A stretch of 64,000 bases of DNA from an uncultured Candidatus Saccharibacteria bacterium (GCA_964448075.1 CAYUUR010000003.1:5610-69609); one strand, 5' to 3'. Shown: positions 37,718 through 41,845, counted from the stretch's first letter. Translations and numbers: made by a program. The notes: generated from the letters alone by a model not told the origin.

Positions 37718-38917
37718 ATGGACGAGGGGACAGCACCGGTAACGGCAGTAAAGGAACAGGCGCCAAAAAAACAGCCTGCACCACAGGCGCGGCTGCGAAC
37801 ACTCGGCATTGTAACCATATTATTCGTGAGTACTGCAATGGGGTTTTTGGGTGGTTGGCTTGGTGCAGAAAATAAACTGAGCAATGGTGAACTCAGTCAG
37901 AACTCGCAGCAGCAGATTGTCTCGAGTGAGAGCGACCTCATTAGTACTATTGCCAAAGAAGTCGGACCATCAGTGGTGTCTGTTAATGTGACGGCCAATG
38001 TGCGCAATGATAGCTTTTTTGGTACCCAGCAATTAGAACAGGCCAGTGCGGGTACTGGCTTTGTGATCGAAGATAACATCATTGTTACAAATCGTCACGT
38101 GGTGCCGAGCAGTGCGACGGCCGTAAGTGTTACGCTCTCTGATGGTACGGAACTTACAGACGTAGAGGTGATTGGTCGGACAAATAGTGATGACCCGCTT
38201 GATGTCGCGTTCTTGAAGGTAAAGGACACTAAAGACAAAAAGCTTGTGCCAGTAAAGTTGGGTGACTCCAGCAAGATGCAAGTTGGCGCCAAGGTCGTTG
38301 CTATCGGCAATGCGCTTGGTCAGTTCCAGAATACTGTCACATCGGGGATTATCTCTGGCTATAGTCGTAGTGTTGATGCGCAGGGTGAAAATGGCGTTGA
38401 GAGTCTGCAGAATCTCTTCCAGACAGATGCGGCAATTAACCAAGGTAACTCTGGTGGGCCACTGGTCAATATGGCAGGCGAGGTAATAGGCATTAATACG
38501 GCGGTTGCTGCTGATTCTGAGAACATCGGCTTCTCTATTCCGATTAATGACGTTAAAGGGCTGATATCTGGCGTACTTAAGACCGGAAAATTAGAACGTC
38601 CATATCTTGGGGTTCGCTACGTATCGATTACCGATGACTATGCCTACGAGTACAACTTGCCAGTCAAACGCGGTGCCTACATCGTGCCTGCAGAGCCTGG
38701 TCAGCCAAGTGTACTCAAGGATAGTCCTGCAGCAAAAGCTGGTTTGAAAGAAAAAGACATCATCGTAAGCATAAACGACACCAAGATTGATGAGAACAAT
38801 AGCCTAACATCAGTGCTTGGCCGTTCGGCAGTTGGTGAGACCGTGTCAGTTACATATTTGCGTGACGGCAAAGAGCAGACAGTGCAGGTTAAGCTCGAGG
38901 CCCTCCCACAAGAGTAG
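37718..38917 (+). CDS. htrA: HtrA/DegP-family serine protease with PDZ domain
   Basis: TM anchor. Trypsin-fold triad context (TNRHV, D in DVAFLKV, GNSGGPL). C-terminal PDZ (GAYIV...SPAAKAGLKEKDIIVSIND). Confidence 0.9.
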   Translation: MDEGTAPVTAVKEQAPKKQPAPQARLRTLGIVTILFVSTAMGFLGGWLGAENKLSNGELSQNSQQQIVSSESDLISTIAKEVGPSVVSVNVTANVRNDSFFGTQQLEQASAGTGFVIEDNIIVTNRHVVPSSATAVSVTLSDGTELTDVEVIGRTNSDDPLDVAFLKVKDTKDKKLVPVKLGDSSKMQVGAKVVAIGNALGQFQNTVTSGIISGYSRSVDAQGENGVESLQNLFQTDAAINQGNSGGPLVNMAGEVIGINTAVAADSENIGFSIPINDVKGLISGVLKTGKLERPYLGVRYVSITDDYAYEYNLPVKRGAYIVPAEPGQPSVLKDSPAAKAGLKEKDIIVSINDTKIDENNSLTSVLGRSAVGETVSVTYLRDGKEQTVQVKLEALPQE

Positions 38918-39485
38918 TCACTCTTACCAGCTAATGCTGGATGTGAGGAACTCACTATGTCTGCCAAGCATAGCTTGGCGAGCCACATACCTTTTTGTGT
39001 CAGCAAAAAGGTATGCCAAAAACAGACACGCGGCTGAAGCCACACGGTTGTCTGGACAGAACTAAAAAGCCGCACCAAAAGAACACCCTTTCAGGGTGGT
39101 CTTCACTGTTCTCTTTGAGTTGTGGAGTTCAGACCGCCTTTTGGTTGGACTCGGCTTTTTAGTGCTGCCACCCACCGGTGTTTCAGAGCGTGACCCCCGC
39201 CCGAACGCCTGTAACTGAAGAGTGTAGTTGTTGCTAAACGCGTCCGGGCGTGGAAGCCGGCATAGAGTGCAAGGCCCTGATTGAGATGTTGTATTGTTTC
39301 ACAATAGAACGGGCAGGTCGTGTTTGAAGCTTGCTTTAAAAAAGCAAGCAAGTTGGCCTAGCCATTGTGAACAATATCAACAGCTCAGTTAAGGACATGT
39401 GCTGCCGGGAGTTTTTGGTTACTTTTGGCGGACCAAAAGTAACAAGAGCGCCAGCTTTAGCTGGTACGAAAGTCCTCGAATTGCC
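38918..39485. ncRNA. Unassigned hairpin-dense noncoding region between convergent genes (candidate structured RNA or RNAs; strand uncertain, weak hint for minus)
   Basis: About 570 nt with no credible ORF and at least 10 perfect or near-perfect hairpins. It also holds a 104-nt domain closed by a 12+8 bp long-range helix (39061-39081 with 39138-39163). It does not fit the RNase P, SRP or tmRNA signatures I know. Confidence 0.35.
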
Positions 39486-40316
39486 CTAAATATGGTTGGC
39501 GGCAACAAACAGTTGGATGAAGTCTGAGGTGTGCTGGAGATTGTAGTCTTGTAGTTTGGCTATTAGAGCCAGTTCCTCATGTTGGAATGGAAGAGATTCT
39601 GTAAGGATGTATTTTGGTTTGCTTTGGAGCTGACTGATTTGTGTAAAGAGTTCACGGTAGAGATCTAAACCGTCTGTGCCACCAAAAATGGCGATGCGAG
39701 GTTCAAACATGGCAGCTTTGTTGATGGTGTGGCTATCAGGGACGTAGGGTAGATTACAGAGCAGGGTGTAGGGTCTAGAGCTAAGGGGTAAGGAATCTAA
39801 CAAGTTGCCCTGGTTGAAAGTAATGTCTGTCTGATGATTCTGTGCGTTCCGTTTTGCAATCGCTATACATTCAGCGCTAACGTCAGTAGCAAATACTGAA
39901 GCATTGGGTAATTCCAGCTTCGCACTAATCGCAATCGCTCCCGAACCAGTACCTACGTCAATAAGCGCAATCCCTTGACCTTGTTTCCTGAACCCTAACC
40001 CCTTGAGCTCATCGATCATTGTCTCGGTCTCTGGTCGTGGTTCGAGTGTGTGAGCGTTGACGATAAATTCTCGCCCGTAGAATTCTGTTTTACCACGTAT
40101 GTAGGCGAGTGGTTCGTGTTTGGCTCGTCTCGCTACTTGTTCGTTCAGTACTTCTTCTTGTTCGCTCGCGAGCTCAATCTCAGGGTGTGCCAGCAAATGA
40201 GCACGATCTTTGCCCAAAAGGTCCTCCAGCAGTACCAAACAATCTAGCCGTGCGGTCGGTACGTCTGTGTGTCGTAAGTGGCTCTCTGCCGATGTAAGCC
40301 AGTCTCGAACAGTCAT
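39486..40316 (-). CDS. prmC: Release-factor glutamine N5-methyltransferase PrmC (HemK)
   Basis: SAM motif DVGTGSGAIA and an NLPY variant of the NPPY motif. Shares one base with prfA at 40316. Confidence 0.85.
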   Translation of the reverse strand: MTVRDWLTSAESHLRHTDVPTARLDCLVLLEDLLGKDRAHLLAHPEIELASEQEEVLNEQVARRAKHEPLAYIRGKTEFYGREFIVNAHTLEPRPETETMIDELKGLGFRKQGQGIALIDVGTGSGAIAISAKLELPNASVFATDVSAECIAIAKRNAQNHQTDITFNQGNLLDSLPLSSRPYTLLCNLPYVPDSHTINKAAMFEPRIAIFGGTDGLDLYRELFTQISQLQSKPKYILTESLPFQHEELALIAKLQDYNLQHTSDFIQLFVAANHI

Positions 40317-41368
40317 TATTCTTGCGTTAATAGTTCGTGTTCGGCGGCTTGGAGGGCTTCGATGAGGTCGTCTATCTGGCCATCGAGCGCACTTGGGATG
40401 TTGCTGCGGGAGTAGCCAATGCGGTGGTCCGTGATGCGGTCTTGCGGGAAGTTATAGGTACGGATTTTTTCTGAGCGGTCACCAGAACCAATCAGTTTGC
40501 GGCGGGCGTCACTGTGTTTTTGGTTTTCTTCATCGATTTTAGCCTGTAACAGACGTGAACGTAGCACGCTCATAGCTTTGAGTTTGTTCTTGATCTGCGA
40601 TTTTTCATCTTGGTTGGTGACCACAATACCCGTTGGTACATGGGTGATACGGACTGCAGAATCAGTCGTGTTCACCGATTGGCCACCATGACCACCAGCG
40701 CGGTAGACGTCAATGCGTAGATCTTGCGGGCTTATCTCTACGTCTGTTTCTTCAGCTTCTGGCATGACGGCAACGGTCACGGTACTGGTGTGGATACGGC
40801 CTTGTGATTCGGTGGCAGGCACACGCTGGACGCGGTGCACACCAGCTTCAAACTTATAGGTGCGGTATGCGTCGGCACCACGGATAACAAAGACGATTTC
40901 TTTATAGCCGCCGGCTTCTGACGGGCTTTCGTTGATAAGTTCAGCCTTGAGGCCGCGATTTTCTGCCAAGCGCACGTACATGCGGTACAGCTCACCACCA
41001 AACAGCGCCGCTTCATCACCACCAGCAGCAGCGCGGATCTCTATAATGCAGTCACGGTCGTCGTTGGGGTCTTTTTCAGTTAGCGCCTCAGCTAATCGAG
41101 CTTCTATGACGGCGAGTTTGGCTTCTGTTTCTTGCATTTCTTCCTGTGCCATTGAAGCCAGCTCATCACCACCTTGAGCAAGTTCTGTCGCCTGTGCAAA
41201 CGAACTCCGTAGGGCGGCACGTTCGTCGAACAAATTAACGATATGCTCAAGCTCCGATTGGCGCTTGGCGAGGCGAGGGTAGTTTTTGTCAGAATAAATA
41301 GCCGGATCTTCCAGTTGCTTCTGGAGGTCGGCGTATTCTTGGCGTAGGTTTTGTTCTTTTGCTTCCAT
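40316..41368 (-). CDS. prfA: Peptide chain release factor 1
   Basis: PAT tripeptide (VPATESQGRIHTS) and GGQ loop (GGHGGQSVNT). Confidence 0.95.
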   Translation of the reverse strand: MEAKEQNLRQEYADLQKQLEDPAIYSDKNYPRLAKRQSELEHIVNLFDERAALRSSFAQATELAQGGDELASMAQEEMQETEAKLAVIEARLAEALTEKDPNDDRDCIIEIRAAAGGDEAALFGGELYRMYVRLAENRGLKAELINESPSEAGGYKEIVFVIRGADAYRTYKFEAGVHRVQRVPATESQGRIHTSTVTVAVMPEAEETDVEISPQDLRIDVYRAGGHGGQSVNTTDSAVRITHVPTGIVVTNQDEKSQIKNKLKAMSVLRSRLLQAKIDEENQKHSDARRKLIGSGDRSEKIRTYNFPQDRITDHRIGYSRSNIPSALDGQIDDLIEALQAAEHELLTQE

Positions 41369-41434
41369 AGTTGTCGTTTCTAGTATATATAAAAACCGCC
41401 AGTAATAGATACTGACGGCTTAATACAAGCGAAG

Positions 41435-41845
41435 TTATTTATCTTCTGTTGCTTCTTTGTTCTCAGCTACTTCTGTTTTTGCTTCAGTTTTGGCTTTGGC
41501 CTTTACAGGAGCTGCTGGCTTTTCATCAGCTTCGTCTTGATCGTCTTTTTTGGCACGAGTCTTGCCGGCGGCCTTCATGCGCTCATCGCGAGCTTTCTTG
41601 GCGGCTTCTGCACGAGCCTTAAACTTATCAACACGACCTTCAATGTCCATAATACGCTCTTCACCAGTAAAGAATGGGTGAGAACTGCTGCTGATGTGTA
41701 CTTTGACAAGCGGGTATTCGTTGCCGTCTTCCCATTTGATTTTGTCTTCTGTTGCGATAGTCGAACGGGTCAGGATCTTAGTTCCGTTATTGAGGTCTTC
41801 AAAGACCACAACGCGGTAGTTATCTGGGTGGATATCTTTTTTCAT
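41435..41845 (-). CDS. rpmE: 50S ribosomal protein L31 (type B, Cys-less) with a ~60-aa K/A/E-rich C-terminal tail
   Basis: [10 protein letters not shown]...HPFFTG core with no CxxC, then [42 protein letters not shown]... Confidence 0.85.

Follow-up and report, generated by a model that had tools for sequence, protein, structure and literature searches.

Few bacterial non-coding RNAs combine a length of more than about 400 nt with a complex conserved structure, and to our knowledge the large classes described so far (RNase P, group I and II introns, OLE, GOLLD, ROOL and HEARO or omega RNA) have all proved to be ribozymes, guide RNAs or unusual assemblies. MITEs and palindromic repeats are multi-copy and dispersed and are mostly 30 to 300 nt in length. 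Saccharibacteria are ultra-small, host-dependent bacteria whose genomes of about 1 Mb contain almost no spare DNA. ROOL, GOLLD and OLE are reported to assemble into RNA-only homo-oligomers through kissing loops and A-minor contacts (PMC12286853). The element described here resembles OLE, ROOL, GOLLD, raiA and HEARO in its length of >500 nt, in its many covarying helices with interspersed invariant nucleotides and in a narrow phylogenetic range, the lack of an obvious cis-regulatory logic and hints of an association with mobility. It differs from these ornate RNAs in having no match to their Rfam models, in occurring in a CPR lineage whose genome is tiny, in not being seen in phage or IMG/VR data, and in an architecture where two long rods, and end modules related in inverted orientation, predominate; no covarying self-complementary loops were identified in it. 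With MITEs and with REP, BIME, ERIC, Correia and palindrome-associated elements it shares an intergenic location of the kind often found between convergent genes, a richness in hairpins, the absence of an ORF, inverted-repeat-like ends and a presence that varies between relatives. In contrast to these repeats, it is about 520 nt long and single-copy in the analysed DNA and in the loci of relatives, and it exhibits strong purifying selection throughout, long-range helices and strand-biased wobbles. There is also a likeness to 3′-untranslated and terminator structures, as the element directly follows stop codons, places the prmC stop in a hairpin and contains a minus-strand hairpin with a U-tract; however, its size is ten times that of a terminator, it stays conserved as a unit when relocated beside a promoter region, and it is missing from the same junction in related genomes.

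The window, a stretch of 64,000 nucleotides from an uncultured Candidatus Saccharibacteria bacterium (TM7, Patescibacteria/CPR; GCA_964448075.1) whose nearest PrmC relatives are likewise labelled Saccharibacteria by their sources, contains a single large stretch without a plausible gene, located between htrA and prmC (38918-39485; Table 1). A preliminary description of the sequence had singled out this gap as an outlier, and its length of 568 nt, against a median of 37 nt between long ORFs, bears this out. All of the stems listed in that description were located at their coordinates, and a repeat finder recovered the perfect stems at 38986-39015 (12 bp), 39418-39443 (11 bp) and 39329-39349 (9 bp) as well as the twin CCAGC-N4-GCTGG hairpins at 38927-38940 and 39451-39464. 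The CCAGC-N4-GCTGG pattern matched twice in 64 kb (0.07 matches expected), once at each end of the element. Folding of 38918-39485 gave -245.3 kcal/mol for the plus strand (z = -11.7 relative to dinucleotide shuffles) and -234.7 kcal/mol for the minus strand (z = -9.8), and none of 100 shuffles folded as well. The sole gap of comparable size, at 492-1020 (529 nt, fold z = -8), is explained by a small protein gene inside it, an ORF at 630/669-866 on the plus strand with a match to the family of KGG stress-induced repeats (PF10685, 22.5 bits) and with strong hairpins on either side.

Table 1. Genes and predicted RNA features at the htrA-prmC junction of the window (coordinates counted from the first nucleotide of the window)
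Feature	Position	Strand	Remarks
LytR-family gene, then 249-aa gene without Pfam match			5′ of htrA
htrA	37718-38917	+	Pfam
htrA-stop hairpin, AAGAGU-AGUC-ACUCUU	38910-38925	+	htrA 3′ end, outside the conserved element
Upstream twin of H5, CCAGC-UAAU-GCUGG	38927-38940	+	
P1, 5′ strand, AACUC	38949-38953	+	pairs with 39409-39413 (GAGUU)
H1 hairpin, GUCUGCCAAGC-AUA-GCUUGGCGAGC	38959-38983	+	helix 2
H2 hairpin, ACCUUUUUGU.UCAGCAAAAAGGU	38986-39015	+	helix 3, 13 pairs
J linker, CCAAAAAC(A/U)GA	39016-39026	+	invariant, single-stranded, A-rich
Domain D1	39027-39192	+	long rod, helices 4-8
H3 long hairpin, CCCCCGCCCGAACGCC ... GGCGUCCGGGCGUGG	39194-39254	+	helices 9-10, tip variable
Domain D2	39257-39408	+	second long rod, helices 11-15, variable tip hairpin 39329-39349
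P1, 3′ strand, GAGUU	39409-39413	+	overlaps G(U/C)UUUUGG, the inverted counterpart of J
H4 hairpin, GUUACUUUUGG-CGGA-CCAAAAGUAAC	39418-39443	+	helix 16, 11 pairs, highly conserved
H5 hairpin, GCCAGC-UUUA-GCUGGU	39450-39465	+	helix 17, 3′ limit of the conserved unit
prmC	39486-40316	-	Pfam
prfA, rpmE		-	beyond prmC; rpsB next

Relatives were sought on contigs encoding PrmC proteins 62 to 83% identical to that of the window. At the htrA-prmC position, elements of the same length were detected in L083 and L084 (JGI 3300056788; nhmmer E of 9e-71, whole length) and in L085 to L088 (GCA_964267615.1 and others; nhmmer E of 1e-61 to 1e-62 for L085 and L086). A profile search located the element of L108 (GCA_018001115.1; E of 6e-118) between rpmE and prfA, with its orientation relative to prfA-prmC unchanged, antisense to both rpmE and prfA, and the 5′ ends of elements were found at contig ends beside prfA, the same second position, in L111 and L089. 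As the element lies between rpmE and prfA in these three lineages, antisense to both genes, it is not an htrA 3′-untranslated region there. Two copies were reduced: L110 contains only D2, H4 and H5, while L094, recognized with a 5′-module covariance model (E = 0.003), has a shortened form, about 230 nt in length, that retains H1, H2, the linker, a single rod and H5. The collection comprises four full-length and two reduced copies, and the covariation statistics given below therefore rest on few lineages. The element was present at neither position in L116 (62% PrmC identity) or in more distant Saccharibacteria, where the gaps measure 0 to 250 nt, and a scan of genome collections by PrmC alignment found it to be missing from the Saccharibacteria among the matches listed (46 to 59% PrmC identity). 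A 750-nt gap in L011 was unrelated (z = -3). This pattern of carriers and noncarriers makes the element look restricted to a small clade, and the reduced copies of L110 and L094, together with the absence from both positions in L116 and the more distant Saccharibacteria, indicate that the RNA is dispensable or modular.

The unit keeps its identity at the two genomic positions. The part common to both begins with (U)AGCUC at window position 38948 and ends with the H5 hairpin at 39465, which defines a conserved element of about 520 nt with a core at 38949-39465. It starts at the htrA stop codon in L085 and 17 nt from the prfA start codon in L108. The prmC stop codon falls within the H5 loop in L083, L085, L110, L094 and L111 and lies 21 nt further on in the window. 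Upstream of the element, the twin of H5 is clear in the window only, being degenerate in L083 and missing from L085 and L108; its origin lies either in the duplication of a target or terminator hairpin or in a local duplication. A hairpin equivalent to that at the htrA stop codon (CAAGAG..CUCUUG) also marks the htrA stop of L111, where the element is otherwise missing from this junction.

A consensus structure was derived with RNAalifold from the four full copies (window, L083, L085 and L108; alignment A4). It contains 17 helices with 168 pairs, and 93.8% of the cells are standard pairs. The parts would be arranged in the order of a closing helix, P1, enclosing hairpins H1 and H2, the A-rich linker, D1, H3 and D2, with H4 and H5 following. 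Helix 1 (P1), whose 5′ strand coincides with the 5′ limit of conservation between the two genomic positions, is weakly supported: a single pair shows compensation, being A-U in the window but G-C in L083 and L108, and pairing is poor in L085. A long-range pairing of CCAAAAAC with GUUUUUGG, which competes with P1 and its one compensation, was rejected; it is perfect in the window and degrades uncompensated in the other lineages. All 10 pairs of H1 are formed in 100% of the copies, three with compensatory changes (CCAAG/CUUGG to CUCGG/CCGAG), while H2 is almost invariant in sequence with covariation of its two outer pairs. D1 is closed by the 19 pairs of helix 4 (39027-39047 with 39172-39192), which exhibits no variation on either side, and continues through helices 5 and 6 into a fork of two hairpins; compensatory pairs number five, seven and four in helices 5, 6 and 8, respectively. 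Compensatory changes affect 23 pairs of D2, and the truncated copy of L110 has compensatory changes of its own in this domain.

Selection on the element was evident from its conservation between lineages that have diverged to saturation. At the four-fold degenerate positions of prmC and htrA, identity between the carrier lineages is only 30 to 46%, a distance at which neutral intergenic DNA is unalignable, and the element retains 55 to 77% identity, similar to the surrounding coding DNA. Changes on both sides were observed for 50 of the 168 pairs, compared with 6 to 16 when the partners were slid by one to three columns, and none of 500 column shuffles matched the observed pairing measures. 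Many of the compensatory changes reside in long-range helices spanning about 165 nt (A4 columns 97-262 and 329-498) and were detected across the four lineages. Whole helix segments have been rewritten on both sides, as in the changes from CUAAAAAGCCG/CGGCUUUUUAG to CUGGCUGGCCG/CGGCCAUCCAG and from CCAAAAG/CUUUUGG to CUGCAG/CUGCAG; hence, the A/U-tract cores noted earlier in D1 are not conserved as sequence, in contrast to those of H2, H4 and the linker, which are invariant. The structure is thus conserved through compensatory change and the sequence is under purifying selection, and by the generic test of compensated pairs beyond controls combined with purifying selection the element is a conserved structured RNA. 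The comparison of syntenic relatives advocated in the preliminary description consequently argues against junk sequence. That description had offered two explanations for the reuse of stem cores, a single large structured RNA or a family of palindromic elements. The covarying long-range helices in four lineages, and the conservation and relocation of the element as a whole, uphold the former; the latter finds no backing, as neither the element nor its hairpins recur within the 64 kb or in the remainder of the relatives' loci. Since Saccharibacteria have almost no spare DNA, half a kilobase of strongly constrained non-coding sequence implies a real function.

The element was compared with catalogued RNAs, genes and repeats. 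Rfam 15, which covers RNase P, tmRNA, SRP, 6S, OLE, ROOL, GOLLD, HEARO, raiA, group I and II introns and riboswitches, yielded no match at gathering scores in the whole 64-kb window, so that the routine annotation foreseen as one outcome of this search did not materialize. At E values up to 10, scattered matches of 14 to 18 bits were obtained for the region, the best scoring 17.8 against a threshold of 75, and the three homologous loci gave weak sub-threshold matches that were different from those of the window. ARAGORN detected no tRNA or tmRNA gene in the 64 kb. Short resemblances to RNase P, SRP RNA and tmRNA had been noted and dismissed earlier, rightly in view of these searches. A test for a conserved ORF in the four copies found stop-free stretches that differ in frame and extent; these differences and the indels of 1 to 2 nt inside conserved blocks indicate that the element does not code for protein. 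Tandem Repeats Finder (minimum score of 30) returned no rows, and the direct repeats in the element are short two-copy matches, unlike CRISPR or TIGR-type guide arrays. A second copy was not found by blastn, by an nhmmer profile or by a covariance model of H1 and H2 in the window and in unrelated parts of the relatives' loci, and the blastn check for dispersed repeats suggested earlier was likewise negative within the 64 kb. REP- or BIME-type repeats were accordingly rejected, with no dispersed copies in the window or in the relatives' loci and with CCAGC-N4-GCTGG confined to the ends of the element. A JGI metagenome scan with the invariant 18-mer CACCGGTGTTTCAGAGCG gave 13 matches, all due to chance, and pattern scans of IMG/VR and a blastn search of 50,697 phage records gave no true match. 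A cis-regulatory leader or riboswitch was also rejected, as at neither position is the plus-strand element followed by a co-directional gene; read on the minus strand, it precedes prfA in the L108-type arrangement only, and a likely prfA -10 box lies between them. Literature searches, extended to papers on the discovery of bacterial non-coding RNAs and on large RNAs, turned up no account of an RNA of this kind from Saccharibacteria or Patescibacteria.

Several measures distinguished the two strands. Cells of the consensus fold include 47 G-U and 5 A-C combinations on the plus strand, compared with 24 G-U and 18 A-C on the minus strand, and when helices were defined by Watson-Crick pairs only, the departing cells on the plus strand were 13 G-U versus 3 A-C. 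The base composition is nearly even and, hence, this wobble bias is not an effect of composition. The consensus energy was -182 kcal/mol for the plus strand versus -155 kcal/mol for the minus strand, and in single-sequence folds the four full copies and L110 were 6 to 21 kcal/mol better on the plus strand, with L094 being better on the minus strand. Variants of H5 in L111, L094 and L110 are G-U on the plus strand and A-C on the minus strand, and the internal loops and junctions of the plus strand contain 36% A versus 23% U. The functional strand is, therefore, probably the plus strand. A hint of minus-strand expression had previously been drawn from the hairpin at 39023-39054, in which G-U pairs on the minus strand correspond to A-C mismatches on the plus strand. 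This is correct for that hairpin, which is terminator-like on the minus strand, but does not extend to the whole element, for which the G-U and A-C counts, both sets of energies and the A-rich junctions point the other way. Against the plus strand, scans for sigma-70-like promoters on it (window, L083 and L108) detected none, inspection by eye upstream of P1 revealed no convincing -35/-10 pair, and a hairpin with a U-tract was not found at the end of the plus-strand RNA; the organism does use canonical terminators, that of rpmE being an example.

On the basis of these sequence comparisons, we put at about even the chance that the region specifies a putative, uncatalogued and clade-restricted structured non-coding RNA of about 520 nt, made from the plus strand and free-standing rather than the untranslated end of a neighbour. 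Function of the minus strand, which we consider unlikely, would make the element a structured extension co-transcribed with the upstream gene (prmC or rpmE), whether as an RNA derived from a 3′-untranslated region or as an elaborate terminator or stabilizer, beginning at the prmC-stop hairpin and ending at a conserved hairpin and U-tract (reverse complement of 39016-39046). The upstream gene is co-directional at both positions, so that a promoter of its own would be unneeded, and the placement of the prmC stop codon in the H5 loop of five lineages fits such a transcript. The invariant segment 39027-39046 and the linker, whose complement supplies the U-tract, form on this strand a textbook-like terminator, CGUGUGGCUUCAGCCGCGUG followed by UC(U/A)GUUUUUGG in the window, L083 and L108; in L085 a GG-to-AA change preserves the local hairpin by means of G-U pairs, and L094, as noted, folds better in this direction. 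Set against this are the wobble counts, energies and A-rich junctions favouring the plus strand, the location of H1 and H2, which are among the most conserved modules, beyond the terminator where they are left unexplained, and the finding that L110, without the terminator-bearing domain, is still structurally constrained in what remains. A bidirectional terminator or insulator, which would stop read-through and protect mRNA 3′ ends between convergent genes with no discrete RNA implied, is in our judgement very unlikely. It would suit the location between convergent 3′ ends in the window, L083, L085 and L110, the three terminator-like sites on the minus strand of the window (1.2 expected), one of which is invariant in all lineages, and the replacement in L108 of the rpmE terminator seen at empty sites. 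However, gaps of 0 to 135 nt suffice at the same junction in related genomes, 520 nt of constraint with long-range helices and invariant single-stranded segments far exceed what termination needs, and at the rpmE-prfA position one flank is a promoter region and not a converging gene.

Signs of mobility and recombination were also observed. The ends of the element, of about 70 nt each, are alike in inverted orientation, with H1, H2 and CCAAAAAC corresponding to the reverse complement of GUUUUUGG, H4 and H5. A model of the 5′ module matched the opposite strand of the 3′ module (E of 7e-5 in L083 and 0.04 in the window), and local alignment of the inverted ends scored 3 to 7 standard deviations above shuffles, although hairpin modules look alike on both strands in any case. 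The twin CCAGC hairpins bracket the element in the window, and L111 keeps a single one at its otherwise empty htrA-prmC junction. D1 occurs as two types, one in the window and L085 and the other in L083 and L108 (83 to 89% identity within and 61 to 66% between types), which conflicts with the relatedness of the PrmC and HtrA proteins, by which L083 groups with L085; the 3′ half of the L085 element is divergent. Taken together, the inverted ends, the twin hairpins, the mosaic of D1, the two positions and the reduced variants suggest that the unit, or modules of it, have been exchanged or relocated. These same features, with the two insertion positions lying in one neighbourhood and with the patchy occurrence and truncated copies, could be accommodated by an element that moves or recombines as DNA, non-autonomous and of a MITE-like or palindrome-associated kind. 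Its hairpins and inverted-repeat-like ends would then function in transposition or recombination, perhaps in the form of folded single-stranded DNA, and any transcript would be a by-product or cargo. We regard this as distinctly unlikely. The element is single-copy in the 64 kb and in the loci of relatives, no transposase gene is located nearby, the rpmE-prfA position contains vague similarities only and no clean target-site duplication, and the phage, IMG/VR and JGI scans were without a match; furthermore, purifying selection throughout the interior, strand-biased wobbles and long-range helices would be unexpected for a passive repeat. It is exceedingly improbable that the element is a very divergent member of a known family missed by Rfam (RNase P, tmRNA, 6S, SRP, a group I or II intron, an IscB or TnpB guide RNA, OLE, ROOL or GOLLD). 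CPR bacteria often carry divergent RNAs, and short strings are reminiscent of RNase P. However, the string concerned, GUCCGGGC, is one arm of the H3 hairpin and is not conserved in L085, which reads GUACGGGC there; the Rfam and ARAGORN results are as described above, with sub-threshold matches that differ between homologues; an essential housekeeping RNA would not be expected to be truncated, as in L110 and L094, or missing from these positions in nearby lineages; and no IscB, TnpB or reverse transcriptase gene is located in the neighbourhood.

For a free-standing plus-strand RNA, the invariant helices (helix 4, H2, H4 and H5) and the linker may be recognition surfaces for a protein or another RNA, and the freely covarying rods may act as structural spacers. 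The invariance of helix 4 on both sides suggests recognition at the level of sequence. By analogy with other orphan large bacterial RNAs, the putative role would be that of a scaffold or of a ribonucleoprotein component. A bolder reading, which we advance tentatively and with less than even confidence, is that of a large ornate RNA class specific to one lineage within the Saccharibacteria: a modular 520-nt RNA of two rods and symmetric end modules that could move or recombine between lineages in the absence of a protein gene and is perhaps a ribozyme or a self-assembling scaffold. The element provides a compact test case for a structured RNA gene that is relocated, trimmed by module and recombined between lineages, and mobility of this protein-less kind, if true, would be of interest in its own right.

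Some features of the neighbouring genes were noted. Distant Saccharibacteria have tRNA-gene hallmarks (GGGGCGUUAGCUCAGC...UCCACCA) downstream of prmC (L020 3775-4032 and L026 3766-4076), with terminator-like hairpins on the flanks; these are unrelated to the element. In the two lineages closest by PrmC (83% and 74%), htrA does not follow prmC; the gene found there instead specifies a protein rich in threonine and aspartate that has a hydrophobic anchor at its C terminus (L082 970-1521, L090 2005-2436 and L091 1444-2100, all on short contigs). The spacer between rpmE and prfA in the window (41369-41434) contains a canonical minus-strand rpmE terminator, GCCGUCAG...CUGGCGG followed by UUUUU, and a conserved TAGTATATA, the likely -10 box of prfA on the minus strand. 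Both are also conserved in L085 and L116, and this spacer represents the empty version of the second position. An extra gene intervenes between prfA and prmC in several relatives, encoding either an AAA_18/shikimate-kinase-like protein of 171 to 175 amino acids (L083 3490-4017, L093 2499-3014, L108 2490-3017 and L110 2499-3014) or, on the opposite strand, an ORF of 182 to 203 amino acids without a Pfam match (L085 3402-3950 and L111 1137-1748); in the window prfA abuts prmC at 40316 with no gene between them. The prmC 3′ end and the downstream DNA are identical in L089 and L108, though their PrmC identities to the window differ. The PrfA proteins of the window (40316-41368) and L108 (1436-2488) are 98% identical, with 64% identity at four-fold sites, compared with 68% and 40%, respectively, for the adjacent prmC; strong codon constraint or a recent exchange of this segment may be responsible. 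Ribosomal protein L31 of the window (41435-41845) has 136 amino acids, of which only residues 1 to 78 are covered by the Pfam domain, and its relatives have 118 to 133 amino acids, with the length of the C-terminal extension varying among them.
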